From Deltaproteobacteria bacterium UBA5756 (GTDB taxonomy: Bacteria; Desulfobacterota; Syntrophorhabdia; Syntrophorhabdales; Syntrophorhabdaceae): DNA of 64,000 nucleotides. This document shows positions 1,612-14,346 of the stretch, piece after piece. The notes beneath the pieces were generated by a model that saw only the letters and a list, made by a program, of their open reading frames with translations, ran no database searches and was not told where the DNA came from. The number at the start of each line of letters is the position of its first letter. The stretch's first letter is position 1. Position numbers and translations under genes: made by a program. Where the stretch lies: NCBI GenBank assembly GCA_002418985.1, contig DIFE01000081.1, positions 1,822-65,821 on the forward strand, written 5' to 3'.

Positions 1612-3449
1612 AAAAAGATGATAAAACATCCCGACAAACCGCCGAACTACGCAGGCGGGCCGAAGAGATCGCCCGGAGAAAGGTGGCCCAGCTGCCGGGA
1701 AACCTGGAGGCCCCGGGACCCGAAGAAACCCAGCAGATGCTCCATGAATTGCAGGTGCATCAGATCGAACTGGAGATGCAGAATGAGGAGTTGCGCCGGG
1801 TGCAGGCGGAACTGGAAGCTTCGCGGGTGCGCTATTTCGACCTCTACGACCGGGCTCCGGTAAGCTATTGCACACTCAGCGAAAAGGGGCTGATACTGGA
1901 GGCGAATCTCACCACCGTGTCCCTGCTGGGTGTCCCCCGGGGCAAGCTGGTCAGGCAGCCGATCACCCGGTTCATCCTTCCTGAGAATCAGGATATCTAC
2001 TATCTTCAACACAGACAGCTTCTGAAAACCGGCGAGGCACAGACGTGCGAATTGAGAATGGCACGAAAGGACGGCACCCAATTCTGGGCCCATATGGATG
2101 CTACCCTGGTGGAGGACGCTGACGGCTTGCCGGTGAGCCGGGTCGTGATCAGCGACATCACCGAACGCAAGCTGGCCGAGGAGGCGCTGGCGAGGGCTCA
2201 TGACGACCTCGAACTACGTGTTCATGAACGCACCGCCGAGCTGGCGCAGGCCTGTAACCAGTTCAGGACAGAGATCGTGGAGCGCGAACAGGCCGAAGAG
2301 CACCTCCGCCGGGTACAGAAAATTGAAGCGCTCGGCACTCTCGCGGGTGGCATAGCGCATGACTTCAACAACCTCCTGGCGGCCATCCTCGGCTTCACCG
2401 AGATGGCCATTGACGATGTTCCCGATAGACCTTCGGTGGAGAAGAACCTCAATATGGTCCTCAAGGCGGCGATGAGGGCCAGAAACCTCGTAAAGCAGAT
2501 CCTTTCCTTCAACCGGAAGAGCGCTCTCGCCAGAAGTCACGTGTCTCTTTCCCCGTTGGTGAAGGAGACAGTGCAGCTCTTGCGGGCTTCCATTCCCTCC
2601 ACGATCGAGATACAGATGGTTATCGGTGCGAGTTCGGATACCGTCCTTGCGACCGCGGATGAGGTGCATCAGATACTGATGAACCTTGCCACCAATGCTT
2701 CTATCGCCATGGAAGAGACTGGCGGGATCATGGAAATCAGCTTCGGCGACGCCGACTTCGTACCCGACTTGCCCATGCTGGCGCCGGATGTTGTGCCTCG
2801 TGAATACGTGGAGCTTGTGGTAAAAGACACAGGGACGGGCATGAGCCCCGAGGTAATGGAAAGAATCTTCGATCCCTTCTTCACCACGAGGGAAGTAGGG
2901 AAAGGCACAGGCATGGGCCTCGCCGTAGTCTACGGGATCGTCAGAAACCTCCAGGGCTTTATCACGGTGGAAAGCAGGCCGGGTATCGGTTCCACCTTTC
3001 GGGTATTGCTTCCCAAGGTAAAAAGTGAAGCGATTGAAGACCCGTTCGAGACCGTGCAGATCGTGGGAGGTACGGAGCACATCCTCTTTGTCGATGACGA
3101 GGAGTTGCTCGTGGATTGGGGCCGGGCTGCCCTTGAGCGTCTCGGCTATACCGTCACCGTCCTGACGGACCCCACGGAGGCCCTGAAAACCTTCTCTGCC
3201 GACCCCTCCCGCTTCCACCTCGTCATCACCGATCAGACCATGCCGAAGCTCACGGGCATAGGCCTTGCCAGGAAGATTCTTGCACTAAGGCCCGACATCC
3301 CCGTCATCCTCTGCACGGGGCACAGCGTCACCGTGTCACCCGAGAAGGTAAAGGAGGCAGGAATCAAAAAATTTCTCATGAAACCCGTGAGGAGGCAGGA
3401 ACTGGCAAGAGGGATCAGAATGGTGCTTGACTCAGGGGAGGAGCAATAA
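1608..3449 (+). CDS. PAS-domain hybrid sensor histidine kinase / response regulator
   Basis: N-terminal coiled coil plus PAS; H-box GGIAHDFNNLL; ATPase G-boxes KDTGTGM and GKGTGMGLAVVYGIV; C-terminal receiver (ILFVDDEE ... VITDQTMPKLTG). Confidence 0.85.
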   Translation: MKKDDKTSRQTAELRRRAEEIARRKVAQLPGNLEAPGPEETQQMLHELQVHQIELEMQNEELRRVQAELEASRVRYFDLYDRAPVSYCTLSEKGLILEANLTTVSLLGVPRGKLVRQPITRFILPENQDIYYLQHRQLLKTGEAQTCELRMARKDGTQFWAHMDATLVEDADGLPVSRVVISDITERKLAEEALARAHDDLELRVHERTAELAQACNQFRTEIVEREQAEEHLRRVQKIEALGTLAGGIAHDFNNLLAAILGFTEMAIDDVPDRPSVEKNLNMVLKAAMRARNLVKQILSFNRKSALARSHVSLSPLVKETVQLLRASIPSTIEIQMVIGASSDTVLATADEVHQILMNLATNASIAMEETGGIMEISFGDADFVPDLPMLAPDVVPREYVELVVKDTGTGMSPEVMERIFDPFFTTREVGKGTGMGLAVVYGIVRNLQGFITVESRPGIGSTFRVLLPKVKSEAIEDPFETVQIVGGTEHILFVDDEELLVDWGRAALERLGYTVTVLTDPTEALKTFSADPSRFHLVITDQTMPKLTGIGLARKILALRPDIPVILCTGHSVTVSPEKVKEAGIKKFLMKPVRRQELARGIRMVLDSGEEQ

Positions 3450-3674
3450 TCGCTGAAATCGACGGACAAGGTAGTTACAGCAATATAAATCCTTGCACCA
3501 TGTTTCGATTGGTAATCCGTCTGTGCCTGTTTCTAAGCAGCTATTTAGTAGTAGGTGCCATACGTAACATCTTCATGCTTCCCCTTATTCACGCCGCAAC
3601 CTTGAGATAAATTAAGATGACTTGATCAGGAATGAGTCGCCCAGCGCAAGAAATGTTTTGCCTCGCCCCAAATA

Positions 3675-3803
3675 CCTAAAATCAAACCCCTCTTGAAAAC
3701 ACCCCCAAAACTCCCTTAATTTTACCAACCGTAAGATTAGTCAGAAGTGACTTATAACATTATTCGGTACTTAGTTATCACACCCCCCTACACAATCTTG
3801 TAG
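3675..3803. repeat. Direct repeat copy A (left island boundary)
   Basis: cctaaaatcaaacccctcttgaaaacacccccaaaactcccttaattttaccaaccgtaagattagtcagaagtgacttataacattattcggtacttagttatcacacccccctacacaatcttgtag. It matches 13530-13657 apart from 2 substitutions, a 1-nt C-run indel and 1 terminal substitution. Confidence 0.9.
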
Positions 3804-3905
3804 CCGCGTGTTATAACTCAGGGGCAAGAAATGTTATAAGTCGGTCCTTGGAATCGCTTGATAGTGTCAAAAAAGGTTTGATTTCTCCAGCAGTACATAA
3901 GACGC

Positions 3906-6371
3906 TCAAGTCTTAAGATTGATAGTTGTTGTGCCACAATTGCAGCATAACACTTCCGGCTGACCTTTGCGTGGCAAGACATACAGATAAGACCTACAGG
4001 TCAGATTCGCACAGCGCATGTGCTCAAGAAGATCTTTGTATGCGTTGACCACTTCTTGAAATTCCTTCGTCTGTAGGTTTGCCCATTCATTAAAGTGAAC
4101 TGATGGGTTAATGGCCCACTGTTCCACATACGTCTTAGCAACCAGGTCCTTAGCCGTGGCCCGCATTGCTGCAAGCATAGTCTTGACTTCCCGAAGGTTC
4201 CATTTCGTGGCGGAGTCCTCACCATCCTCGAGTAATTTTCGCCACCGATTTAACGCTTGAGGCAGGAGGTCGGCGAGATCATGGTGACCGTCGCCCCTGA
4301 ATTCAATTCTAGCACGAAGATTATCGGCAAGGATGAAGGCTACGTATTCGAGGTAGCGGCGCAGCAGCCAAGCTGCTCGGGCCACATCGTCCTTGGCAAG
4401 TTCACCCTCGATTTCGGTCCAGATGTCCTGATCGTCCCAAACGCGCGGGCCGAAGTCGATGGTCCAACCACTGAATGACCGGCTCCTAGAAATCAGGTTT
4501 TCTGTCTTCATGTATTGGAGCCACACGCGGTCATGAGTTGTAAGAATGAATTGTGTATTAGGGAACTCTTTCTTGAGAAACCGGCAAACCTCCCGGCGGT
4601 GCCCGGTGTCAACTGACATGAGTACATCGTCTAGGACAGCGAAGGTGAATTTCTCTCCAAGCGTGTGTTTCATGAGAGCTAAATAAAGGCACAGCCCCAT
4701 GGCGTCCTGATGGCCTTCGCTGTGATAGGCGCCAGGTGGAAAGAGTCCGCGGCCATAGAAATCCACATCAAAACTGAGTTTGGCCGGTTCCGAGATAAGT
4801 CTGCCGTGAAACTTGTCCTCATCCTCATGATTGATCGTACCATAATACTTTACGAAGTCCTGCGCGACCTGATCGTAGATGCCTTCGAGAGTTGCCATAG
4901 CGGAAGTGTTGTAGTGGCTCACAACCTTCTGCGCGACATCACTCCGGGTCTTTTCCACCTCAGCCGTTTGTATTGCCCCCAGTAACCGCTCATAGCGATC
5001 CTGGGCGACGATCAGAGCATCGCGAGCCGCATCCTCGGCAGAGGTGTCAGGCAAAGCTTTCACAGCGGCTTGGCACCCGTCAACCTCCCTCTTCTGCTCC
5101 GCCCCTAGCGACCACCACGAGTTGGTTACGGCTTTGAGGGCTGGACTGACTTGGCTGTGATCTTCGAGGAATTCCTTGAGTGCCTTTTCTGCCTCCCTTA
5201 GTTTGTTGAGGTAAATACCAGTTTCAACGTGTGGTAAGACCGGTTGGAAGCTTTCACTATACTCGACAACCCGCTCCATCGCCCGAATGCGCCCCACCAA
5301 GGTTCCAAGTACGGTGTTAATGCTGCTTCGGAGCTGGTTGAGTAGTTTCTCGATATTCTCCGCGCTAAGGATCTTCTTGCGCAGGTGTTCGCGCAGTTCA
5401 TCTGCGTTCCACGGTCTATCGCAAAGTGGACAGGAGTCTTGTGTGACAAAGTCGAGGCCGGTCTTAACGAATTGGTACTGACGAGCTAGTGTCAACGCTT
5501 GCTCGTCCTCTTTGAGCTTTTCGAGGGCGCCTTTCACATCATTACGGCTGTCAACGAGTGTGGAGGGCTCCGTACCTTGAAGTGCAGTCTGCAAGGCTTC
5601 GAGATCGACCAGAGCCGAGGCCTTGCTCAGGACCGATTTCTGTTTTTGATCCTTGACTTCGGGTAAACCAGCTTTAAAAGACGTGTTCTTGGTCAGTTTT
5701 GTCAGAACGGGTAAGGAAAGAAGCTTGCGCTTCTCGTTCACTTTTGCCAAAACAAGTGCGTGCTCCAGCTTATCAACCTTCAGGACGGTTCTTAGCTCGG
5801 TCGCTGCCGTGATGCGATTTCGTTCTGCTTCATCCGCCTTGCTCTTTTGCTTGTTGTTAAATGTCGTGAAAGTCTTCCTCAGGCGTCCGATATGGTCGAG
5901 GCGAAGCAGCGTTTGAACATCGGTAGAGCGCTGACCAGGGGGTGTGATGATGTACTTGACAATCTCTCGGCGGGAGAGTGCAAACTCGGGATGGGTTTCC
6001 AACTCAGCGATAATATGTCTAACGGCTCCATCATCGGGCGTCACCGTGACGGTGCCGGGGTTCTTCACCGAGCGGTGAATAGTGATGGTCTTATTTAGCG
6101 AAGGAATATTGCAGGTCATGGTGACATTGGCGTCTTCCGGATGGGTACGTTGATCCACGTGTGGTGCGTGTAGTTTGACGCTCAGTCCTGCCGTGCCCTG
6201 CCCAGACAAGCGGGTTATGTCACCTGTAAGGCAGAATTCAATGGCGTCGACAACACCACTCTTGCCGGTACCGTTGGGACCACATATCCCAAAATTCTTG
6301 CCACCCAAGTCCAAGTCAAGGGTCCGAATACCACGGAACTCTGCGATGTGGAGGGTCTTAATGCGGATCAC
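3906..6371 (-). CDS. SMC/Rad50-like ABC ATPase with a coiled-coil zinc hook and a C-terminal Cys4 domain (RloC/AAA_13-like architecture); candidate defence protein
   Basis: GTG start overlaps the stop of the upstream 72-aa ORF (GTGA). Walker A GPNGTGKSG (aa 31-38); helical insert of roughly aa 165-520 with central CPLC (aa 314-317, nt 5421-5432); signature-like SEGHQ (551-555); Walker B FAVLDD (577-582); TTHD (611-614); ~200-aa C-terminal domain ending CANLTC...CCNCG. Confidence 0.7.
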   Translation of the reverse strand: MIRIKTLHIAEFRGIRTLDLDLGGKNFGICGPNGTGKSGVVDAIEFCLTGDITRLSGQGTAGLSVKLHAPHVDQRTHPEDANVTMTCNIPSLNKTITIHRSVKNPGTVTVTPDDGAVRHIIAELETHPEFALSRREIVKYIITPPGQRSTDVQTLLRLDHIGRLRKTFTTFNNKQKSKADEAERNRITAATELRTVLKVDKLEHALVLAKVNEKRKLLSLPVLTKLTKNTSFKAGLPEVKDQKQKSVLSKASALVDLEALQTALQGTEPSTLVDSRNDVKGALEKLKEDEQALTLARQYQFVKTGLDFVTQDSCPLCDRPWNADELREHLRKKILSAENIEKLLNQLRSSINTVLGTLVGRIRAMERVVEYSESFQPVLPHVETGIYLNKLREAEKALKEFLEDHSQVSPALKAVTNSWWSLGAEQKREVDGCQAAVKALPDTSAEDAARDALIVAQDRYERLLGAIQTAEVEKTRSDVAQKVVSHYNTSAMATLEGIYDQVAQDFVKYYGTINHEDEDKFHGRLISEPAKLSFDVDFYGRGLFPPGAYHSEGHQDAMGLCLYLALMKHTLGEKFTFAVLDDVLMSVDTGHRREVCRFLKKEFPNTQFILTTHDRVWLQYMKTENLISRSRSFSGWTIDFGPRVWDDQDIWTEIEGELAKDDVARAAWLLRRYLEYVAFILADNLRARIEFRGDGHHDLADLLPQALNRWRKLLEDGEDSATKWNLREVKTMLAAMRATAKDLVAKTYVEQWAINPSVHFNEWANLQTKEFQEVVNAYKDLLEHMRCANLTCRSYLYVLPRKGQPEVLCCNCGTTTINLKT

Positions 6372-6586
6372 TTTTGATCCTCCGGCGTCGATTCGAATAG
6401 CATTGCGATTACCTGCTCTGGCGTCTTCGGTATAAAACCTTTGCTCAGGAAACTGTATAGTCTGTCTATCCCATCATCTGAAATCGCAGGATCAGCTCGC
6501 ATCGCGGCAACAAACTGCTCCAGTACCTGAAGAACGGTCGGCGACATAACTACGTTACTGTTTTCCTCGGCCTTATCCTTAGCCAT
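6368..6586 (-). CDS. Small acidic hypothetical protein translationally coupled to the ATPase
   Basis: 72 aa with no recognisable motif. Its stop overlaps the ATPase GTG start, and its own ATG is overlapped by an upstream 46-aa ORF. Confidence 0.45.
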   Translation of the reverse strand: MAKDKAEENSNVVMSPTVLQVLEQFVAAMRADPAISDDGIDRLYSFLSKGFIPKTPEQVIAMLFESTPEDQK

Positions 6587-6719
6587 GTCTATTCCGTATG
6601 CCTGCGACGTAGTTTAGAATAGTTGGGTGGATCGGTATAGAGATTCTTTGTGCCTGTTGTTCTTCGACTCTTAACCCATAAACCCGTTGTTTCAACTTGC
6701 CGGAGCTGTTATCCTTCAT
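6579..6719 (-). CDS. Possible 46-aa leader ORF (below the ORF-track cutoff)
   Basis: Hand translation gives MKDNSSGKLKQRVYGLRVEEQQAQRISIPIHPTILNYVAGIRNRHG. RBS GGAG lies 7 nt upstream of the ATG at 6719. The stop TAA overlaps the start of the 72-aa ORF (ATGGCTAA). Confidence 0.2.
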   Translation of the reverse strand: MKDNSSGKLKQRVYGLRVEEQQAQRISIPIHPTILNYVAGIRNRHG

Positions 6720-6811
6720 CTGCTTGCTCCAAGTTTCATGATGGCGTTACTTTTATCGATTATTGCTTACTAATAGCATACATATTATTAACAATTACTC
6801 AAGAAAAGCTT

Positions 6812-6838
6812 TTATAGGATATTGGAATTACCCTATAA
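6812..6838 (-). terminator. Hairpin immediately after the Dam-like ORF stop (weak intrinsic terminator candidate)
   Basis: On the minus strand: TTATAGG-13 nt-CCTATAA followed by AAGCTTTTCTT. The stem is AT-rich, so stability is doubtful. Confidence 0.3.
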
Positions 6839-7519
6839 TTATGGGACATAGTTCCCAACCAACAATTCTGTCACCTTCTTTTGTTTGTTGGCCCCTGGCA
6901 TCTTATAGCTCGTCGTGACCTCCTCGATAGAATAATCTTTGAACAGTTCCCGGATCTCCCGGACGTCATTAATGGACACGATAAACCTCCCCTGAATCCC
7001 CGCCAGTACATCCCGAAGCCTCGCGAAGTCCTCTCGATTGAATATCCCCTCACCATAATCATTTTCATTCCCATAATAGGGTGGATCGATATAGAAAAAG
7101 GTCTCCGGCCGGTCAAACCGTTCGATAAGCTTTTGATAATGCATGTTCTCGATGTAGACCCGGGACAGGCGGAGATGAGCCTCAGAAAGTTCCTCTTCGA
7201 TCCTTAATAGATTTAATGATGACGGCCGAGTCGGGCCAATATTGAAAGTCTGCCCCACCACTTTGGCCCCGTATCCGGCCCTCAGAAGGTAGTAGAAACG
7301 CACCGCCCGCTGGATATCGGTGAGGGTATCCGGATTCTCGGCCTTAAACCGGGAGAATTCCTCCCTGGCAACGAGAATCCACTTGAGATAGCGGATAAAT
7401 TCCTCAAGATGGTGCTGGATAACCCGGTACAGCGTTACCAGGTCCTTGTTGATATCGTTAATGATCTCGACCTTTGATTCTTCCTTCTTGAACAACAGCC
7501 ATGCAGCCCCTGCAAACAC
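6839..7519 (-). CDS. D12-class N6-adenine DNA methyltransferase (Dam-like), catalytic portion; N-terminal segment missing from this frame
   Basis: DPPY motif (FYIDPPYYG). FxGxG-like FAGAAW sits at the very N-terminus, followed by NDINKDL. The N-terminal W-x-G-x-K segment that normally precedes motif I is absent from this frame (see finding). Confidence 0.75.
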   Translation of the reverse strand: MFAGAAWLLFKKEESKVEIINDINKDLVTLYRVIQHHLEEFIRYLKWILVAREEFSRFKAENPDTLTDIQRAVRFYYLLRAGYGAKVVGQTFNIGPTRPSSLNLLRIEEELSEAHLRLSRVYIENMHYQKLIERFDRPETFFYIDPPYYGNENDYGEGIFNREDFARLRDVLAGIQGRFIVSINDVREIRELFKDYSIEEVTTSYKMPGANKQKKVTELLVGNYVP

Positions 7520-7520
7520 C

Positions 7521-7874
7521 TCACAGTAGCAGGTATGTTTCGTAGTCGGCGCAGACCTGACAGAATGCGGCCACGATATCGATGGACATTCCCCATCGTT
7601 TGTTGCCGTTATGGTCTATGATGTCGCCCGCCAGATCACGGCTTTCCGCTGACCAATTGTCGAGGGTGCTTTTGGGAACCTCGATACCGGTCAGCTTGTA
7701 GATCCCCGAACAGATGTCGACCCTGTCCATGCCGGATTTCTTGATTGCTGTCGAGACGGCCTGGCGGACCCTGGCGCTGACGTTCAGGCTGCCGGGAGCA
7801 GGAGGTCTTTCCGGTTTCAGGTACTCGAAGAGTCCTCCCTGTCGACTGTCAATTTTCTGTTTAACTTTTGACAT
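7521..7874 (-). CDS. Hypothetical protein; probable N-terminal fragment of the frameshifted Dam-like methyltransferase
   Basis: RBS GAGG lies 6 nt upstream of the ATG. The C-terminus NGNKRWG-x19-ETYLLL resembles the SAM-binding N-terminal segment of Dam enzymes. The stop is 1 nt from the Dam-frame GTG. Confidence 0.45.
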   Translation of the reverse strand: MSKVKQKIDSRQGGLFEYLKPERPPAPGSLNVSARVRQAVSTAIKKSGMDRVDICSGIYKLTGIEVPKSTLDNWSAESRDLAGDIIDHNGNKRWGMSIDIVAAFCQVCADYETYLLL

Positions 7875-8027
7875 TGCAAACCTCGGTGCTGTTTGTTAGA
7901 ATCAAACCAGATTTGAAAATATGACGGGGGGAGTGGCTCTTGAGGAAAAAGGAAGAAGGGATACCTGATGAGGTTTTTGCCTTCGCCTTGCCGGTCAAAG
8001 AGAAGATGCGCAAGCTCATGGAACTCC

Positions 8028-8387
8028 TCATTCCTCTTCCCTGTTTTGAATACAGCATGAAAACCGGAGATTGTTCGGAATTTGAGTGTCCAACCGGAGA
8101 CGGTGAAGAGTCTCTTTGCAGAACCAGGAGACTCCTCGCTGAGCAACTGGCAGCCGCGATACAAATAAACAGATACGATCCGCTGCATCCCGAATATAAA
8201 AGGCTATCTCAGAAGGAGAAAACCCTGCTTCTGAAAGTTCACGAACTAAACGGCGGATATGTTCCTCCTCCTCACCTGATTCCACGAAGGGAAAAGGGGT
8301 AGAGGCGCATATGGCGGCCATACAGAGCATGCGATCTCGCAACATTAATGATCGCTCAGTCTGCATTGTTACTGGGTTGCATTTCAT
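8028..8387 (-). CDS. Hypothetical protein
   Basis: The ATG lies 9 nt after the stop of the upstream HTH gene, with RBS AGGAGAG. No motif recognised. It competes with plus-strand ORF 7940-8302. Confidence 0.4.
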   Translation of the reverse strand: MKCNPVTMQTERSLMLRDRMLCMAAICASTPFPFVESGEEEEHIRRLVRELSEAGFSPSEIAFYIRDAADRICLFVSRLPVAQRGVSWFCKETLHRLRLDTQIPNNLRFSCCIQNREEE

Positions 8388-8396
8388 GAGTCTCTC

Positions 8397-8618
8397 CTAT
8401 GCGGCCCGTTTTGGTTTTTCGTCCGGCCATAGATCTGACACCTGGACACCCAGGGAATCTGCGATCGCCTGGCGGATGTGCGGTGATACCTGTCTGCCGA
8501 TCATTACGTGGTACACGTTCTGGCGGGTACAGCCAATCTTGCGGGCTATTTCTGCGCCCGTTACATCTTTGTCAATCATAAGTTTCTGGATCTTCTTTTT
8601 GGTCTGGGTTGTTGCCAT
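8397..8618 (-). CDS. Small HTH DNA-binding protein (Ner/Cro-like)
   Basis: 73 aa with HTH VTGAEIARKIGCTRQNVYHVMIG. It is divergent from the CI-like repressor across a 61-bp spacer. Confidence 0.6.
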   Translation of the reverse strand: MATTQTKKKIQKLMIDKDVTGAEIARKIGCTRQNVYHVMIGRQVSPHIRQAIADSLGVQVSDLWPDEKPKRAA

Positions 8619-8679
8619 GGTTAGATTATTATATGCACGATGATGTGTTGTAAAGGAAAAATATGCAGCATAGTGCGTA

Positions 8680-9363
8680 ATGAAGAACGAACATAGCGAT
8701 ATAGGGCAGAGGTTGAAGATGTTGAGGGGTTCTCTATCTCAAACTGAGATGGGAAAACTCTTTAATATGCCATTACGTACATATCAGTCATATGAGTATG
8801 GGCAGCGGGTACCTCCCTCGCATGCTCTATCAAGTATTGCAAGAAAGTTCGGAACCACTGTTGAATGGATATTAACCGGTGTGGACGAGCGAGCGGACGA
8901 AGAAACAGGTAAAGGCGTACTGAAGAAAGAACCTTCTCCAGGAGAGAAGCTGGGGCAGGATTTCGCATATATTCCCCAGGTGAATGGAAGAATCAGCGCA
9001 GGAAAAGGTTTAGCTCCTGATAATGTTATCGAAATGAGGGTCGCCTTTCGAAAAGAATGGATTGCGCGAAAGGGTAACGCAAAAGACATGGTTCTTATTA
9101 AGGTATCCGGTGATAGCATGGATCCGACCCTTTTGAATGGCGATCTTGTTCTCATCGATCGTGGCAGAAAATATTTTGAACCGCAGGGCGGTATTTACGC
9201 CATTGCAGTGGACGATACGATAATGATAAAGCGAGTCCAGGTTGTTGGGGATCGTGCAAAGATTATCAGTGACAATAAAATGTATGAGCCTTTTGAGGTT
9301 AGTGCCGATCAGGTAAAGATAAACGGCAAAGTCATCTGGTTCGCCAGGGAATTGGAGAGGTAG
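8680..9363 (+). CDS. LexA/CI-type repressor (XRE HTH + S24 peptidase)
   Basis: HTH SQTEMGKLFNMPLRTYQSYEYGQR; Ala-Gly cleavage candidate ISAGKG; S24 Ser VSGDSMDPTL and Lys IMIKRV. Confidence 0.8.
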   Translation: MKNEHSDIGQRLKMLRGSLSQTEMGKLFNMPLRTYQSYEYGQRVPPSHALSSIARKFGTTVEWILTGVDERADEETGKGVLKKEPSPGEKLGQDFAYIPQVNGRISAGKGLAPDNVIEMRVAFRKEWIARKGNAKDMVLIKVSGDSMDPTLLNGDLVLIDRGRKYFEPQGGIYAIAVDDTIMIKRVQVVGDRAKIISDNKMYEPFEVSADQVKINGKVIWFARELER

Positions 9364-9485
9364 AAAATGGGTTCGTTGTTGACTCGCTGCGGATCAGTCC
9401 GCAATCTATTACAGTTAGTTTGAACAGGTATCGATATCTTCTGTTGGCTCTGTAAAGGCAGGATTCATCCGATTGAGCGGGTTTT

Positions 9486-10280
9486 ATGAATAATTCTGAT
9501 TTTTTCAGCATCTGCTACGCACATCAAGAGCCACAAGTTTCGTGGTGTGGCGTTATTGTAAAGGACGGGGAAGACTTCGATCTTTTCATGAGAAATGAGG
9601 TTGCTTCCCGCCTCCACGATGCGAGCGGCGCGAGAGAATTTGAGGACTGTCTGCGTAGTCTTGTCGCGACAGGCTTTAATCGAGACAATCTGGAAGACAT
9701 TCTTGCTGCTGAGATTCCCGAAGATCGGGACTGGGCCGTCGGTGAAGCTATAGCGGAAGCTTATTTGAGCGAAAAGCATGGTATTATTTGGCCCTGGAAC
9801 ACAGAACGGGATAAGCGAACACCCCGAGCCAGTCTTCCGGGTGCCGATCTAATTGGTTTCGATGTCAGAAGAGAAGGTATTCGATTTGCCTTGGGCGAAG
9901 TAAAAACTTCGAGCGATAAAGATGTTCCGCCCAACGTCATGAACGGACGGACCGGTATGATACATCAGCTGGAAAACCTAGCCGACAATCTAGGGTTAAT
10001 CAACCAATTGCTCAAGTGGCTGTTCTTTCGATGCAGAGCCACAGATCACGAAAAATCCTTCAAAGCGGCCAGCACTCTCTTTCTTAGTTCTGGCAAGAAG
10101 GCCGTCGCCTTATTTGGCGTGTTAGTTCGTGATACAGCGCCCGACGAACTAGACTTAAGAAACCGAGGAAACGCATTTGCCAAGAAACTCAAAGATCCCA
10201 CTGAGTGTCAGTTGGTAGCAGTGTACTTACCATGCGCAGTTGCGGATCTTCCCGCACGCGTCTCGGGAGGCACAGTGTGA
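9486..10280 (+). CDS. hamA: PD-(D/E)xK nuclease-fold protein, HamA-like (Hachiman)
   Basis: 264 aa. D121 (PGADLIGFD) ... E138-V-K140 (FALGEVKTS) fits a PD-ExK motif. It lies immediately upstream of, and is start/stop-coupled to, a large SF2 helicase. Confidence 0.5.
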   Translation: MNNSDFFSICYAHQEPQVSWCGVIVKDGEDFDLFMRNEVASRLHDASGAREFEDCLRSLVATGFNRDNLEDILAAEIPEDRDWAVGEAIAEAYLSEKHGIIWPWNTERDKRTPRASLPGADLIGFDVRREGIRFALGEVKTSSDKDVPPNVMNGRTGMIHQLENLADNLGLINQLLKWLFFRCRATDHEKSFKAASTLFLSSGKKAVALFGVLVRDTAPDELDLRNRGNAFAKKLKDPTECQLVAVYLPCAVADLPARVSGGTV

Positions 10281-13200
10281 GTCATTGGTTACTGGACAGC
10301 CTTGCCGAAACAGTACAGTTGGCGCTAAAACAGGCAGATGGCGTGGAGATCCAACGTGCGTTGATGGGCTCCCCTTCCGGCAATGACGTGGGTCTTATCG
10401 AAAGAACTGTTGAAGCGTTGGAATTAGCAGTGTTTGACCTTGTTGCTGAAGGCACGCCACGCGAAGAAAACGCTAGAAATGAGCTTAGAAGGATTGCTGC
10501 CGATGCTTTCCGGTTGATTCGTGTATTGCCCAGACGAGATGATCCGATTGAATGCGCAAGACTCTTGTTACGGGGTGGCGCACTCGCTGTGCTCGGGGAC
10601 AAGGGGTCGGACGCGGCACGATGGCTACGCGAAGATGAATGGCCCGATTTGCCGCTGGAATCGAGCGATTGGAGTGAACGTACCTGGGCAACAATCATCG
10701 ATATTTGGTTGCGATTAATTCGCAAGCATGGTTGGTCCGACCGCGACAAAGTGCTGAAGTGTATCTCTACACTACGTGATTCTCAGGTTGTGTTCGAAAG
10801 AGATTATCTTGCTGGTAGAGAGCACATACATGCCAAATCCGCAGCTCTCGAACTTGTCGGTCTCTATCATCTTGCTAAGGCGGCAGAAATACTTGCTTAT
10901 TACATAACCGATGGTGTGGTGGATGGGAAGTATCAAATTCATCAACTCCTAGAACAGCACTTTGACCGAGTGTTTGCCGTTTGTGAGTACGCCCAAATGT
11001 ATGAGTTAGAACCTTTAGCCCGACTTCTTTCGGCCTGTTCGTCTCAAATGGCAGACAATTCCATCTGGACGGTTACTCGCGCTGTCAACTCAAGGGTAAC
11101 AAGGTTTGTCGAGACGCTCGTTGCCCAAGGCCGAGGCGATCGAGCAATTTTTGATGTCTTGCCTCCACAGCGCCGCTCGTTGGCAGAAAAGGGTTTGCTC
11201 GGTTCAAGTCGGAGGGCGGTCGTAGTGAGTCTTCCTACATCTAGCGGCAAAACATTGATTGCGCAGTTTCGTATTCTTCAAGCCTTGAACCAGTTCGAGC
11301 TGGAGCGCGGCTGGGTAGCTTATCTTGTTCCGACCCGAGTGTTAGTTAACCAGATAACGCGCCAGTTGCGCCGTGATTTTGAGCCGCTATCGGTTGTTGT
11401 TGAAAAGGTCAGTCCGGCTTTGGAGGTCGACAATATAGAGTCTGAATTGTTGCGTCAAGAAGATCAGACACGGGCCTTTCGAGTGCTTGTTACTACTCCC
11501 GAAAAGCTGGATCTGATGTTACGACAAGGTCTGGAGGCAACAATCGGTCGCCCTTTGACATTGGTCGTTGTGGACGAGGCTCACAACATTCAGGGTGTTC
11601 AACGAGGGCTTAAGCTTGAACTATTGTTGGCAACCATCAACAACGAGTGTCAAAGAGCACAGTTCCTGTTATTAACACCTTTCATCAGGAATTCGGAAGA
11701 AGTCGCCCGGTGGCTTGGAGGTCAGAGTTCCGATGACATAAACCTGGCTCTAGACTGGCAACCCAACGATCGCATTGTTGGAATCGTGCAGGCCGAAAAA
11801 GGTGACGCTTTGGACGGGAGAAGTTTCGATTATCAGCTTTGTTTAGAGACAGTGCATACTACCAGAAATACTCTGACAATCGACAATTCTCTGTTCCTAC
11901 CGAAGAATCCTGATATTGCATCAACTTTTAGTAAAGCGTCGAATGCTAGCAGCTTGGCGGCTATTACCGCCCAGCGTTTGCACGAAAGAGGGCCGGTAAT
12001 TGTAATGCACGCCCGACCTGATTGGGTGTGGGCTCTGGCTAAGAAGTTCATGATTCCAGAGAACAAGAGGGAACTCTCTACCGAAAAAGTCAAGTTGGTT
12101 CAACAATTTCTTGACCTCGAATATGGTGTTAGTTTCCAGTTGCAAGACTTGCTTTCATACGGTGTTGGAATCCATCATGCTGGTCTGTCAGATGATGTTC
12201 GCCTTCTAATGGAATGGTTGTTCGAAGAGAACGAACTAGATTTTCTGGTGGCAACCACAACCATTGCCCAAGGGGTAAATTTTCCAGTTACCGCCGTAGT
12301 CATGGCTTCACATCAGTATCCTATTGACAAGAAAATGACGGATATGTCACCCGAAGATTTTTGGAACATCGCGGGTCGGGCCGGAAGAATAGGTCAAGGT
12401 AGCGTTGGAATTGTAACGCTGGTTGCTGACAATGATAGTAAGGCTTCGATTCTTCGTAATTTTATTAATCACCAGAGCGGCGAACTGAATTCCGCTCTTG
12501 TTACTCTGGCTAGAGAAGCCGGAGAGATGCTCGAAAACCTTGGAGCAATCGTTTACAGACATCCGGAATGGTCCGCTTTTCTTCAATACCTAGCGCATAC
12601 ATATCGCCAGATGGGCAAACCCGAGGCGTTTGTGAATGAAATCGAGCAGGTCCTTCGTGGAACGTTCGGATACGAGAAACTTCGTAGCCAAGACTCTTCT
12701 TTGGCAAGGAAACTGCTTGATGGAATTCTAGTTTATGCTCGCTATCTCGGCGAACCTGGACAGCCCCTTAAACTTGTTGACAGCACTGGTTTCTCACTTC
12801 AAAGTATAAGGACCGTCCTCGGCGCCGCAAGTGTTGAGGGAATTCATGGCGACGCATGGAATTCTCAATCCCTATTCAACGAAAACAACCGCGATCTTCA
12901 AAAAATGATGGGCGTTTTGCTCAATGTTCCCGAATTGCGGGAGAACTTGAAGGCTGTGACGGGCGGCAGGTCCCCCGATGGGAATAAGCTTGCGTCAATC
13001 GTGAAAGACTGGGTAAATGGGGTTTCAGTTCCAGAGATAACCAAGCGCCATTTCTTCAAGGAGGGCGACGACTTTACGTTGGCCATGACAACATGCGGAC
13101 GAAACATCTTCGGCAGGCTGACTCAGACTGCCGCATGGGGCCTTGGGGCTTTGCTTTCAATTACTGGCAGCGGTTTGTCTGAAGAGCAGTTGTTGTCGCT

Positions 13201-13450
13201 GAGCAATCTGCCATCGCAAGTTTACTACGGCGTTAACAACGATTCCGCCGTTGCCTTGAGACTGCTAGGCGTACCAAGAACTGCCGCGACATCCCTGGCA
13301 AGTTTTATGGGCGATGTTCTCACTGAACCGCTAGCCAGTATCCGTGGACAGTTGCGCGACATGCCTGCCGCAAGTTGGCAACAAGCGCTTGGACAACACC
13401 ACGGAGAGGTTTACCAAAGAGTATGGAAGGTTCTAGAAGGATTAGACTAA
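10277..13450 (+). CDS. hamB: Ski2/Hel308-like SF2 DEAH helicase, HamB-like (Hachiman)
   Basis: Motif I LPTSSGKT, motif II VVDEAHNI, motif V ATTTIAQGVNFP, motif VI AGRAGRIGQG. The preferred start is the GTG at 10277 overlapping the upstream TGA; the ATG at 10232 is an alternative. The helicase core is flanked by N- and C-terminal regions of about 320 and 355 aa. Confidence 0.7.
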   Translation: MSHWLLDSLAETVQLALKQADGVEIQRALMGSPSGNDVGLIERTVEALELAVFDLVAEGTPREENARNELRRIAADAFRLIRVLPRRDDPIECARLLLRGGALAVLGDKGSDAARWLREDEWPDLPLESSDWSERTWATIIDIWLRLIRKHGWSDRDKVLKCISTLRDSQVVFERDYLAGREHIHAKSAALELVGLYHLAKAAEILAYYITDGVVDGKYQIHQLLEQHFDRVFAVCEYAQMYELEPLARLLSACSSQMADNSIWTVTRAVNSRVTRFVETLVAQGRGDRAIFDVLPPQRRSLAEKGLLGSSRRAVVVSLPTSSGKTLIAQFRILQALNQFELERGWVAYLVPTRVLVNQITRQLRRDFEPLSVVVEKVSPALEVDNIESELLRQEDQTRAFRVLVTTPEKLDLMLRQGLEATIGRPLTLVVVDEAHNIQGVQRGLKLELLLATINNECQRAQFLLLTPFIRNSEEVARWLGGQSSDDINLALDWQPNDRIVGIVQAEKGDALDGRSFDYQLCLETVHTTRNTLTIDNSLFLPKNPDIASTFSKASNASSLAAITAQRLHERGPVIVMHARPDWVWALAKKFMIPENKRELSTEKVKLVQQFLDLEYGVSFQLQDLLSYGVGIHHAGLSDDVRLLMEWLFEENELDFLVATTTIAQGVNFPVTAVVMASHQYPIDKKMTDMSPEDFWNIAGRAGRIGQGSVGIVTLVADNDSKASILRNFINHQSGELNSALVTLAREAGEMLENLGAIVYRHPEWSAFLQYLAHTYRQMGKPEAFVNEIEQVLRGTFGYEKLRSQDSSLARKLLDGILVYARYLGEPGQPLKLVDSTGFSLQSIRTVLGAASVEGIHGDAWNSQSLFNENNRDLQKMMGVLLNVPELRENLKAVTGGRSPDGNKLASIVKDWVNGVSVPEITKRHFFKEGDDFTLAMTTCGRNIFGRLTQTAAWGLGALLSITGSGLSEEQLLSLSNLPSQVYYGVNNDSAVALRLLGVPRTAATSLASFMGDVLTEPLASIRGQLRDMPAASWQQALGQHHGEVYQRVWKVLEGLD

Positions 13451-13529
13451 CAACAAAAGTAACCCTCGAACATAGAGACTTGTCAGATCGGCAACATACG
13501 ACAGCAGAAATACTTTTTCGCTTAATCCC

Positions 13530-13657
13530 CCTAAAATCAAACCTCCCTTGAAAACACCCCCAAAACTCCCTTAATTTTACCAACCGTAAGATTAGTCAGA
13601 AGTGACTTATAACATTATTCGGTACTTAGTTATCACACCCCCTACACAATCTTTTAG
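13530..13657. repeat. Direct repeat copy B (right island boundary)
   Basis: See copy A. Weaker similarity extends about 30 nt upstream in both copies (gcaagaaatgtttt versus gcagaaatacttttt). Confidence 0.9.
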
Positions 13658-13661
13658 TCAA

Positions 13662-13690
13662 TTGACACTTTTAGTGTGAAAGTGATATAA
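13662..13690 (+). promoter_or_regulatory. Sigma70-like promoter candidate for the TMEM175-like gene
   Basis: TTGACA (13662-13667), 17-nt spacer, ATATAA (13685-13690). It begins a few nt after repeat copy B ends. Confidence 0.35.
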
Positions 13691-13701
13691 GCGTTAACAT
13701 A

Positions 13702-14346
13702 ATGGCAAAAACCGAATCTTCCGGCGGCCGGTTTGTTATGACGACTCACCGCATAGAAAGTCTGTCAGACTGCATTTTCGCCTTTTCGATGACTCTTCTC
13801 GTCATGAATTTTTCTTTCCCGACCGTCGGGACTGACAAAAGCGAGGCGCAGGTTACAGAAGTGTTCCTGAGGGAGATAGCGAAGTTTGACCGCTACGTCC
13901 TTACCTTCGTCCTTCTGGCCATTTTCTGGATTACACATCATCAGCAATTCCACCATATCAGGAGAACGGACCGCGGCTTTCTCTGGATCCAGGTGGCCAC
14001 CCTTATGTTTATCGTGATGGTCCCCTTCACCGCGGCATGGATGTCGGCTTACAGCCACCTCCATATTACCAATCTCGTCTTTGATATCAATCTATTTATT
14101 CTCGGACTTCTCTTCCTCGTAGCCTGGATCTACGCAACGCATGGAGGAAGACTTGTTGATGAAGGCATTGACGGCCGTTCTGTCTGGCGGGGCACGGCAA
14201 GGTCCCTTCTTACATGTGCTGTCGCGCTGATCGCCATCGCGGTTTCCTTCTATCATCCCGGCTGGAGCAACTATGCGTTTATCCTGACGCCGGTGGTTCT
14301 CCTGCTTAAGCCTTTTCGACAGTCAGAAAGACCGGGCGGCCGCTGA
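13702..14346 (+). CDS. TMEM175/DUF1211-family membrane protein (putative K+ channel)
   Basis: N-terminal RIESLSDCIFAFSMTLLV motif typical of DUF1211, and about 6 hydrophobic segments. The true start may be the ATG at 13738. Confidence 0.7.
   Translation: MAKTESSGGRFVMTTHRIESLSDCIFAFSMTLLVMNFSFPTVGTDKSEAQVTEVFLREIAKFDRYVLTFVLLAIFWITHHQQFHHIRRTDRGFLWIQVATLMFIVMVPFTAAWMSAYSHLHITNLVFDINLFILGLLFLVAWIYATHGGRLVDEGIDGRSVWRGTARSLLTCAVALIAIAVSFYHPGWSNYAFILTPVVLLLKPFRQSERPGGR

Follow-up and report, generated by a model that had tools for sequence, protein, structure and literature searches.

A two-gene cassette coding for a predicted zinc-hook ABC ATPase with an orphan C-terminal domain and for a small acidic partner protein

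SMC/Rad50-derived sensors such as those of Lamassu, Wadjet and RloC are a current focus in the study of prokaryotic immunity, and the way in which they pass from DNA sensing to an output is only now being resolved. To which of these systems, if to any, does an ATPase belong that carries a Rad50-like zinc hook in its middle and a C-terminal domain of no obvious kinship, and which of the small open reading frames (ORFs) before it belong to the same unit? The question is raised by a locus in a 64,000-nucleotide stretch of Deltaproteobacteria bacterium UBA5756 (assembly GCA_002418985.1, contig DIFE01000081.1, positions 1,822 to 65,821 of the forward strand; the whole of this stretch is referred to below as the window). 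A preliminary description of the locus, made by eye, proposed an 821-amino-acid (aa) ATP-binding cassette (ABC) ATPase with the layout of the anticodon nuclease RloC, chained in translation to two overlapping ORFs of 72 and 46 aa and lying next to a Dam-like methyltransferase gene in a defence-type island. In our analysis the conserved unit is a cassette of 2.7 kb with two cistrons, the ATPase gene and the gene for the 72-aa protein directly upstream of it.

The two proteins of the cassette

Every motif from which the split ABC head had been read was found at the residues first given for it: Walker A (GPNGTGKS, aa 31-38), the SEGHQ signature (551-555), Walker B (FAVLDD, 577-582) and TTHD (611-614), with CPLC lying between the two halves of the head. 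An alignment of 95 homologues, with identities as low as about 40%, shows residues G31, G36, K37, S38, Q153, C314, P315 and C317, the whole of S551 to Q555, D581-D582, H613-D614 and the four cysteines C787, C792, C810 and C812 to be invariant or nearly so, and conservation on this scale rules out chance. C314, P315 and C317 are invariant throughout the 95 sequences and also in archaeal homologues. The C-terminal lobe of the head is the most conserved segment of the protein (0.80), and the N-terminal lobe is basic, with a median net charge of +5. The Pfam families SMC_N, AAA_23 and AAA_29 match the head, and Rad50_zn_hook (PF04423) gives a sub-threshold match (E 0.0095, 16.2 bits against a cut-off of 24.3). 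Sequence matches in the PDB are to the heads of Rad50 and SMC proteins with E values no lower than 2e-7, the best, at about that value, being Rad50 heads.

The same alignment served as input for an AlphaFold2 model of the full-length protein, which has a mean pLDDT (predicted local distance difference test score) of 84. When the model was compared with known structures by Foldseek, the best matches were the heads of SMC, Rad50, condensin and cohesin, and the Lamassu LmuB structures 9hqu and 9hqx were among the matches as well. The preliminary description had placed the CxxC motif at the midpoint of a helical insert, and this is how the model has it: CPLC sits in a short turn between the ascending and the descending helices of an antiparallel arm. 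We regard this apical geometry of the hook as plausible and do not go further than that, because the local pLDDT around the hook is only 53-69. Sequence and model together indicate that in the ATPase a split ABC head of the Rad50/SMC type carries an arm with a predicted zinc hook.

What follows the head is less familiar. The model divides the C-terminal region into a helical bundle and a three-stranded tail that resembles a zinc ribbon (Table 1), and when this domain is modelled alone it reaches a pLDDT of 90.8 and a predicted template modelling score of 0.85. The bundle is acidic (median net charge -5) and the ribbon mildly basic. A second cluster of cysteines had been pointed out here, and its four members C787, C792, C810 and C812 are indeed those named above as invariant, whereas C809, which had been listed with them, is replaced by Arg in 86% of the sequences. 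Within the bundle R671, E675, D694, D701, W724, W752, N755, H759, N761 and W763 are invariant; R671-X3-E675 lies on the first long helix, and H759 stands at the N-terminal end of the last core helix, four residues after N755. Most of this polar and aromatic set is kept, together with the Cys4, in haloarchaeal homologues at 25-29% identity.

The domain, which could not be assigned by eye, has resisted assignment by database search as well. It has no match in Pfam (E <= 10), PADLOC or PHROGs, its profile has none among PDB sequences (E <= 10), and 47 C-terminal domains of the family compared with PADLOC and Pfam (E <= 5) gave no match to PrrC, RloC or any other HEPN model. Foldseek searches of the PDB and BFVD with the domain returned generic helical bundles only, with a best E of 0.4. 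Ten of the 47 members have a weak match to IBR (half-RING), which is due to the Cys-rich ribbon. In an exhaustive HMMER search of 1.84 billion representatives the domain profile retrieved 842 proteins, and the best 150 of these 842 all have the same architecture of ~815-830 aa or are truncated pieces of it; among these 150, the domain occurs solely as a fusion to this ATPase. Apparent stand-alone domain proteins of ~201-207 aa were considered and rejected, as they arise where gene callers start at the near-invariant M621 on truncated contigs.

The second component is the 72-aa protein. We took 80 loci from species genomes and clustered, without supervision, all ORFs within 6 kb of the ATPase gene. 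A single conserved neighbour emerged, an ORF of ~67 aa on the same strand with a median gap of -3 nt, and no third conserved gene, whether LmuA-like or a downstream nuclease, was found within that distance. Inspection of the loci placed the small ORF directly upstream of the ATPase gene in ~75 of the 80, with a 4-nt overlap in 64, and a tblastn search with the 72-aa query gave matches at the same place in many loci. The junction itself is conserved: in the window the GTG start of the ATPase gene and the TGA stop of the 72-aa ORF overlap as GTGA, just as had been described, and the ATPase start reads NTGA in 74 of 76 loci. The genes for the haloarchaeal homologues of the ATPase are likewise preceded by an overlapping ORF, 58-68 aa in length. 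The small proteins align as one family, with a median isoelectric point (pI) of 4.6 and the pattern V..F..FL..L ... RL...L ... ALF followed by an acidic tail, and gene finders do call the 72-aa ORF. From this pattern of conservation, the 72-aa protein appears to be a real, translationally coupled partner of the ATPase.

The partner has no meaningful match in Pfam, PADLOC, PHROG or the PDB; a word-indexed search with the small protein produced two matches, and its family profile retrieved only noise, and no solved structure, from the PDB. A similarity to FliG_N, seen in a member-by-member Pfam scan in 5 of 52 members at E >= 0.003, was judged spurious. Judged by these sequence searches, the cassette would thus have two orphan components, the C-terminal domain and the small partner. 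A shorter form of the ATPase was noticed on a plasmid of Halomontanus rarus (locus L089, 8822-10968), where a protein of 657 aa ends right after the head, without the C-terminal domain, and a 58-aa upstream ORF overlaps its gene; a variant of this 657-aa type is also found as match H22, from Natrinema salinisoli. The archaeal variant may be the ancestral two-gene core. Persistence of the small ORF beside this 657-aa form suggests that its product acts with the ATPase core and not merely as an inhibitor of the C-terminal domain.

The 46-aa ORF fared differently. The features that had suggested it are present: its stop overlaps the ATG of the 72-aa ORF as ATGGCTAA, and a GGAG stands 8 nt before its own ATG. 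The 72-aa gene's own ribosome-binding site looks weak. It has no homologue, however, by tblastn in the 80 loci or in a collection of 15 billion proteins, gene finders leave it uncalled on the source contig, and a mini-ORF at the equivalent position occurs in 18 of 77 loci as against 15% at random positions, which is no enrichment. We have therefore rejected the 46-aa ORF as a third cistron; it is probably spurious, judging from its lack of conservation, and a purely local role in coupling translation is conceivable. Of the chained unit originally proposed, it is the coupling of the 72-aa ORF to the ATPase gene that stands.

Relation to Lamassu, RloC and Rad50

Among all defence families the best profile match of the ATPase is to LmuB of Lamassu. 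The PADLOC LmuB profile PDLC03859 aligns aa 1-623 with positions 2-594 of its 611 (E 2.1e-28, 98 bits), a score far under what is seen within a family, for a profile to which PADLOC gives no curated cut-off; the other LmuB models of PADLOC align to the P-loop only. Proteins of the long LmuB clade are ~800 aa in length and have a Walker B of the form hhhhDD and exactly one CxxC (PMC12663957). With 821 aa, an invariant AVLDD and one invariant CPxC, the ATPase carries this signature, although about 200 of its 821 residues make up the added C-terminal domain and not a longer arm. It has been proposed that Lamassu descends from SbcCD, and LmuC from the C-terminal domain of SbcD, which is encoded just before SbcC (PMC12663957). 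The small gene of the cassette lies directly upstream, in the position of LmuC and of the SbcD C-terminal domain, so that the gene order is that of LmuC-LmuB and SbcD-SbcC, but the likeness is positional only, for the ~65-aa upstream protein matches no PADLOC LmuC model. The cassette shares with Lamassu a sporadic distribution of the kind seen in defence islands; unlike Lamassu, it has no LmuA effector gene. As far as sequence comparison can tell, LmuB of Lamassu, and not RloC, would be the closest detectable family.

The likeness to RloC, from which the preliminary description had started, is one of layout. As in RloC and PrrC, one polypeptide joins an ABC head, a coiled-coil insert with a CxxC hook and a helical C-terminal domain of ~150-200 aa; the lengths are similar (803 aa in RloC, 821 aa here), R-X3-E falls at a similar relative position, and GTG starts are frequent in both. 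RloC is made up of a hook-bearing ABC head and a C-terminal anticodon-nuclease triad, Arg-X3-Glu-X36-52-His, which in the protein of G. kaustophilus consists of R692, E696 and H737, with the hook Cys near aa 291 (PMC2610378). Its C-terminal domain is a HEPN domain, the hallmarks of which are Rx4-6H and an upstream acidic residue (PMC3710099). In the present protein the spacing is instead R671-X3-E675-X83-H759, where H759 is the only invariant His of the domain. There is no conserved His 36-52 residues after E675, and the HEPN Rx4-6H is missing, since in no clade does an Arg precede H759 by 4-6 residues. The bundle topology, the His at a helix start with Asn at -4 and the upstream Glu are all compatible with HEPN, but the Arg of the motif is missing, Pfam gives no HEPN match and Foldseek no significant one. 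Pfam AAA_13 aligns with aa 174-373 only, at 26.3 bits against a cut-off of 36, and the Cys4 zinc ribbon is an addition with respect to RloC. To our knowledge, moreover, RloC has no obligatory small partner gene. Because the Glu-to-His spacing is 83, the Arg is missing and no PrrC, RloC, AAA_13 or HEPN model matches, the protein does not qualify as a member of RloC: the hook-bearing head of the proposed layout is there, the nuclease triad is not, and the layout is best taken as an analogy.

With Rad50 and SbcC the ATPase has in common the fold of the head, the CPxC hook, the antiparallel arm and a partner gene that lies directly upstream and overlaps. It differs from them in a much shorter arm, in the extra C-terminal domain and in not being a core gene, and its scores with the NCBIfam models for Rad50 and SbcC are 14-27 bits against cut-offs of 450-1420. 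Indeed, the NCBIfam equivalogs for Rad50, SbcC, RecF, RecN, SMC, PtuA and MAD3 all score far under their cut-offs. A neighbour of the Mre11/SbcD type is also wanting: no Metallophos gene is conserved beside the cassette, and one of 29 downstream genes has that domain. MAD3 of MADS, PtuA of Septu and retrons, GajA of Gabija and AriA of PARIS match in the regions of the P-loop, the signature and Walker B, but these matches are limited to the motifs of the head; those proteins have neither a long arm with a hook nor this C-terminal domain, and a recognisable nuclease partner goes with each of them.

By the tests for membership of Lamassu, of RloC and of Rad50, then, the cassette falls outside all three, and no characterised family was found to match the ATPase from end to end. 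Pfam, NCBIfam, PHROGs and PADLOC v2.0.0 (including the PDC candidates of the 'embedded genes' screen) hold no model specific to the family, and we found no description of it in the openly searchable literature on SMC-like two-gene systems, on embedded defence genes or in preprints on large-scale discovery. Its public names are generic ('AAA family ATPase', 'RecF'). The cassette is nevertheless not categorically new, because its sensor lies in a well-known superfamily and its layout has precedents.

Distribution, neighbourhoods and possible function

Relatives of the ATPase are found in 360 of ~185,000 GTDB species genomes (~0.2%), belonging to Pseudomonadota, Acidobacteriota, Nitrospirota, Bacteroidota, Verrucomicrobiota, Chloroflexota, Patescibacteria and other phyla. 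The family amounts to more than 886 clusters at 90% identity in one search and to at least 842 clusters at 50% identity. Given so sporadic a spread, with 40-77% identity across phyla, we take it that the cassette has moved by horizontal transfer. It is present in 24 plasmid records, 7 of them conjugative, in none of the 50,697 phage records of INPHARED and in one of the 2.9 million viral contigs of IMG/VR. Cultured hosts include Mucilaginibacter lappiensis ATCC BAA-1855, Sphingobium lactosutens DS20, Phaeobacter inhibens P72, Rhodobacter capsulatus SP108 and Undibacterium pigrum DSM 19792. Tightly linked downstream genes occur in 33 of 76 loci, where they are mutually unrelated, and are absent in the other 43. 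The cassette is thus a self-contained, horizontally mobile and widespread two-gene unit.

Its immediate neighbours are heterogeneous and include integrases, type IV coupling proteins, methyltransferases, BrxL, QatA/D, type I and type III restriction-modification genes, AbiEi, TIR-TM and HmaB; Tra genes, too, are found in its neighbourhood. On the Halorhabdus tiamatea plasmid pHTIA (NC_021913.1, 6805-9469; locus L083) the cassette is embedded in a system annotated as BREX-5, where pglX stands on one side of it and pglZ on the other; the ATPase there is full-length, at 29% identity, with an overlapping upstream ORF of 68 aa, and hypothetical and helicase-related genes follow. In another locus (L060) the cassette and the gene for a PglZ homologue converge, and behind the latter comes an ORF of the size of BrxL, a BREX-like arrangement in which the identity of BrxL is taken from a BrxL match in the pooled neighbour scan. 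In the contexts examined, embedding in BREX therefore amounts to one embedded case, L083, and one adjacent case, L060. Elsewhere the cassette directly follows a type I restriction-modification operon and AbiE inside an integrative and conjugative element, or ICE (L085), or stands between Wadjet (JetABC) with an MmeI-family enzyme on one side and two Holliday-resolvase-like nuclease genes on the other (L096). Further copies are flanked by RES and Mrr_cat with SRAP, Fapy glycosylase and ImuB/DnaE2 near (L093), belong to a CTnDOT-like element with AbiEii nearby (L094), or lie beside an integrase and a transposase in haloarchaea (L087 and L088). Copies on conjugative plasmids are found beside relaxase and coupling-protein genes, as in two Rhodobacterales plasmids (L081 and L082), or in the strawberry-notch/DUF736 accessory region.

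Two side observations concern genes that recur near the cassette. In two metagenome-assembled genomes of unrelated bacteria (L003, 241-1884; L048, 101-1453) an ORF with 32-34% identity to the helicase-related protein encoded at the Halorhabdus BREX-5 locus was seen ~6-8 kb upstream of the cassette. In L096 the two Endonuc_Holl genes are in tandem (12489-13503) and begin 29 nt after the ATPase gene on the same strand, and in other loci the same downstream slot holds DUF2726, DUF4365, Mrr_cat or Metallophos genes; such nuclease-type genes may be optional partners or simply neighbours.

We suggest, with about even confidence and by analogy with the logic of Lamassu and RloC, that the cassette is most likely an anti-phage or anti-plasmid module, that is, one of genetic conflict. 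The suggestion draws on what was observed of the architecture, the invariance of the motifs, the coupling of the genes, the exclusivity of the C-terminal domain, the sporadic distribution rich in mobile genetic elements and the defence neighbourhoods; from these we infer the defence role, the sensing of DNA, the binding site of the small protein and any catalysis by the C-terminal domain. The biochemical steps are modelled on the behaviour of Rad50/SbcC, LmuB and RloC. In this scheme the CPxC hooks of two ATPase chains would join by coordinating Zn. The basic lobes of the heads would engage DNA as they bind ATP and hydrolyse it, and so form a sensor that probably detects DNA ends or abnormal structures of replication or recombination. 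The small protein would probably be an obligatory subunit, accessory or conferring specificity, that binds the ATPase core. The helical bundle with its Cys4 ribbon would be the output module, either a new effector, possibly a non-canonical RNase or nuclease that uses R671, E675, N755 and H759, or an adaptor. More tentatively, we can picture a two-component immune system, ranging from bacteria to haloarchaea, in which a zinc-hook sensor bears in cis an effector of new fold and is controlled by the ~65-aa orphan acidic subunit. It is as tentative a thought that such a system might be intermediate between SbcCD, long Lamassu and RloC, with an effector that is possibly a non-canonical HEPN-like domain or a new nuclease.

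Several points weigh against a role in defence. The similarity to LmuB is modest (98 bits), and the family profile retrieves no solved LmuB at E <= 0.01. There is no recognisable enzymatic effector; the C-terminal domain, which is acidic, matches no nuclease, RNase or hydrolase and may serve a purely structural purpose. Nor does the small protein resemble LmuC, the Rad50-binding region of Mre11/SbcD or the kleisins, and zinc binding, dimerisation and ATPase activity are assumed from the motifs. Most immediate neighbours are not defence genes, and some members of the family lie among housekeeping genes (L084, and L086 beside mfd). The association with defence comes from individual neighbourhoods and not from an enrichment statistic, and it is to be read as suggestive.

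Other readings have to be set against the one we favour, and the first that comes to mind is an RNase of the RloC type, activated by stress or phage, in which a diverged HEPN/PrrC-like C-terminal domain would cleave tRNA or other RNA upon DNA damage while the small protein restrains it. Layout and proportions do agree with RloC of G. kaustophilus (hook Cys at 291 against 314 here, and R692/E696/H737 against R671/E675/H759), the invariant R-X3-E lies on the first long helix, and H759 has Asn at -4 where canonical HEPN has R-N-x3-H. HEPN families without the Arg, which use another conserved basic residue, are documented, and ABC-HEPN fusions are recurrent in defence (PMC3710099). The cassette in L085, furthermore, follows a type I restriction-modification operon, as do PrrC and some RloC genes. 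Yet a Glu-to-His spacing of 83 is outside the defining 36-52, an Arg before H759 is lacking in every clade, none of the 47 C-terminal domains matches a PrrC, RloC or HEPN model and Foldseek gives no significant HEPN match, AAA_13 covers the arm only and below its cut-off, and the domain is acidic, all of which leads us to consider such an RNase unlikely. We are slightly more doubtful of a factor for repair, recombination or DNA maintenance borne by mobile elements, an SbcC/RecN-like ATPase that would tether DNA ends without a nuclease of its own, for instance during conjugative establishment. The Rad50/SbcC-like head, hook and arm, the lack of a detectable enzymatic effector, the frequent location on conjugative plasmids near relaxase and coupling-protein genes or the strawberry-notch/DUF736 region, and the company of mfd in L086 and of SRAP, Fapy glycosylase and ImuB/DnaE2 in L093 would all suit it; but the distribution is far too sporadic for core repair, there is no conserved partner of the Mre11/SbcD type, the NCBIfam scores for Rad50, SbcC, RecN and RecF are 10-100x under the cut-offs, and the embedding in BREX-5 and the adjacency to restriction-modification, Wadjet and Abi genes suit immunity better.

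The order of the two genes, with a small acidic ORF first and overlapping a large one, is the classical order of antitoxin and toxin, and the contrast between a basic N-terminal head lobe and an acidic partner, together with the enrichment on plasmids and ICEs, might be explained if a labile acidic antitoxin, possibly a DNA mimic in the basic groove of the head, neutralised a toxic ATPase and so stabilised the carrier elements. We think this improbable: neither protein resembles an antitoxin or toxin family, no DNA-binding domain for autoregulation is apparent in the small protein, and so strong a co-conservation of a partner of fixed length, in bacteria and archaea alike, is rather what one expects of a structural subunit. 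A pair of this kind would, besides, be compatible with a defence function as well. The three-cistron unit of the preliminary description, made up of the 46-aa ORF, the 72-aa ORF and the ATPase gene and tied in the manner of MADS to the Dam-like methyltransferase, had in its favour the ATGGCTAA and GTGA overlaps, the GGAG before the 46-aa ORF, a PADLOC mad3 match at E 6.8e-19 and a methyltransferase gene 253 nt upstream. It is effectively refuted by the comparative data: the 46-aa ORF is neither conserved, nor called, nor enriched at its position, the ATPase reaches only 17.9 bits with the NCBIfam MAD3 model NF047739, whose cut-off is 420, which excludes membership of MADS, and the methyltransferase gene has no conserved linkage to the cassette.

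The methyltransferase gene does adjoin the cassette in the window, but methyltransferases are not conserved neighbours of the cassette in the 80 loci and its presence is incidental. In the ORF, which is of the Dam-like D12 type, the first ~30 positions of the family profiles have no counterpart and motif I is degenerate (FAGAAW). The frame upstream of it is open but has no start codon, so that the gene is probably 5'-truncated or inactive. Probably truncated here and unlinked elsewhere, it was rejected as a partner of the cassette.

Whatever its function, the cassette presents a large protein about a quarter of which, along with its obligate partner, is without detectable relatives, in a family that is large, unusually well conserved and borne by plasmids and ICEs. 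If the module of genetic conflict that we favour is what it is, the known SMC-like systems would gain a minimal one of two genes, whose output domain lies in cis and has a new fold, and there would be a tractable model for the gating of an effector by hook, head and accessory subunit. Should the cassette not serve in defence, it would be an unrecognised DNA-handling machine carried by mobile genetic elements.

The locus within the window

The cassette lies in the low-GC part of the window, a stretch from ~3000 to 14000 with 47-53% GC between flanks of 58-63%. The flanking DNA codes for CheR/CheB-PAS and hybrid histidine-kinase proteins at one end of this stretch and for a TMEM175-like protein at the other. 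There is no tRNA gene in the whole 64 kb, and no integrase was noticed in the first 14 kb. Its low GC content and the presence of the PDC-M23A/B genes alongside the cassette agree with the defence-type island that had been proposed. The coordinates of the features are collected in Table 1.

Table 1. Features of the cassette, domains of the ATPase and nearby genes, in window coordinates
Feature	Coordinates	Strand	Basis or remark
ATPase gene (gene 2), 821 aa, GTG start	3906..6371	-	ORF list and translation
Head, N-terminal lobe, aa 1-158; Walker A G31-S38, Q-loop Q153	5898..6371	-	Pfam, invariant columns, model
Arm, ascending helices, aa 159-306; low-confidence break 218-249	5454..5897	-	AlphaFold2 secondary structure, pLDDT
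Hook, aa 307-322; CPLC aa 314-317 (nt 5421-5432), then D318, W321	5406..5453	-	Conservation, model, translation
Arm, descending helices, aa 323-513	4833..5405	-	AlphaFold2 model
Head, C-terminal lobe, aa 514-646; signature S551-Q555, Walker B AVLD581-D582 (hhhhDD), D-loop, H613	4434..4832	-	Invariant columns
C-terminal helical bundle, aa 647-784, orphan fold	4020..4433	-	AlphaFold2 domain model
C-terminal three-stranded zinc-ribbon-like tail, aa 785-821	3909..4019	-	Model, invariant C787, C792, C810, C812
Small acidic partner gene (gene 1), 72 aa, pI 4.4, helical	6368..6586	-	Homologues upstream of ATPase
46-aa ORF, probably spurious	6579..6719	-	
AT-rich spacer, presumed promoter/leader of the two-gene operon; holds the unsupported 46-aa ORF	6587..6838	-	Sequence
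Dam-like D12 methyltransferase ORF	6839-7519	-	Probably 5'-truncated or inactive
117-aa ORF, phrog_2345 'transcriptional regulator'	7521-7874		Abuts the methyltransferase ORF
Cro/C1-type helix-turn-helix gene	8397-8618	-	Divergent from the next gene
Helix-turn-helix/S24 peptidase (LexA/CI-like) repressor gene	8680-9363	+	
PDC-M23A and PDC-M23B, overlapping gene pair	9486-13450	+	PADLOC matches, E 6e-100 and E 0

The leader of about 250 bp that had been described is a spacer of 253 nt, rich in AT, that follows the methyltransferase gene, and across loci the median GC content of the 150 nt upstream of the cassette is 47%, that of the ATPase gene 56%. Nothing usable came out of a promoter and terminator scan of the minus strand, where no sigma-70 consensus turned up. 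Because the consensus is absent on this strand, the spacer is presumed, and no more, to hold the promoter of the operon. Downstream of the ATPase gene the window has no gene for ~450 nt.

The PDC-M23B protein has DEAD and Helicase_C domains and also matches HamB of Hachiman, and the PDC-M23A/B pair is a candidate for a second, Hachiman-like defence system 3 kb from the cassette. Between the two, the divergent Cro/C1-type and S24 repressor genes form an immunity switch in the style of a phage or an ICE within the island.

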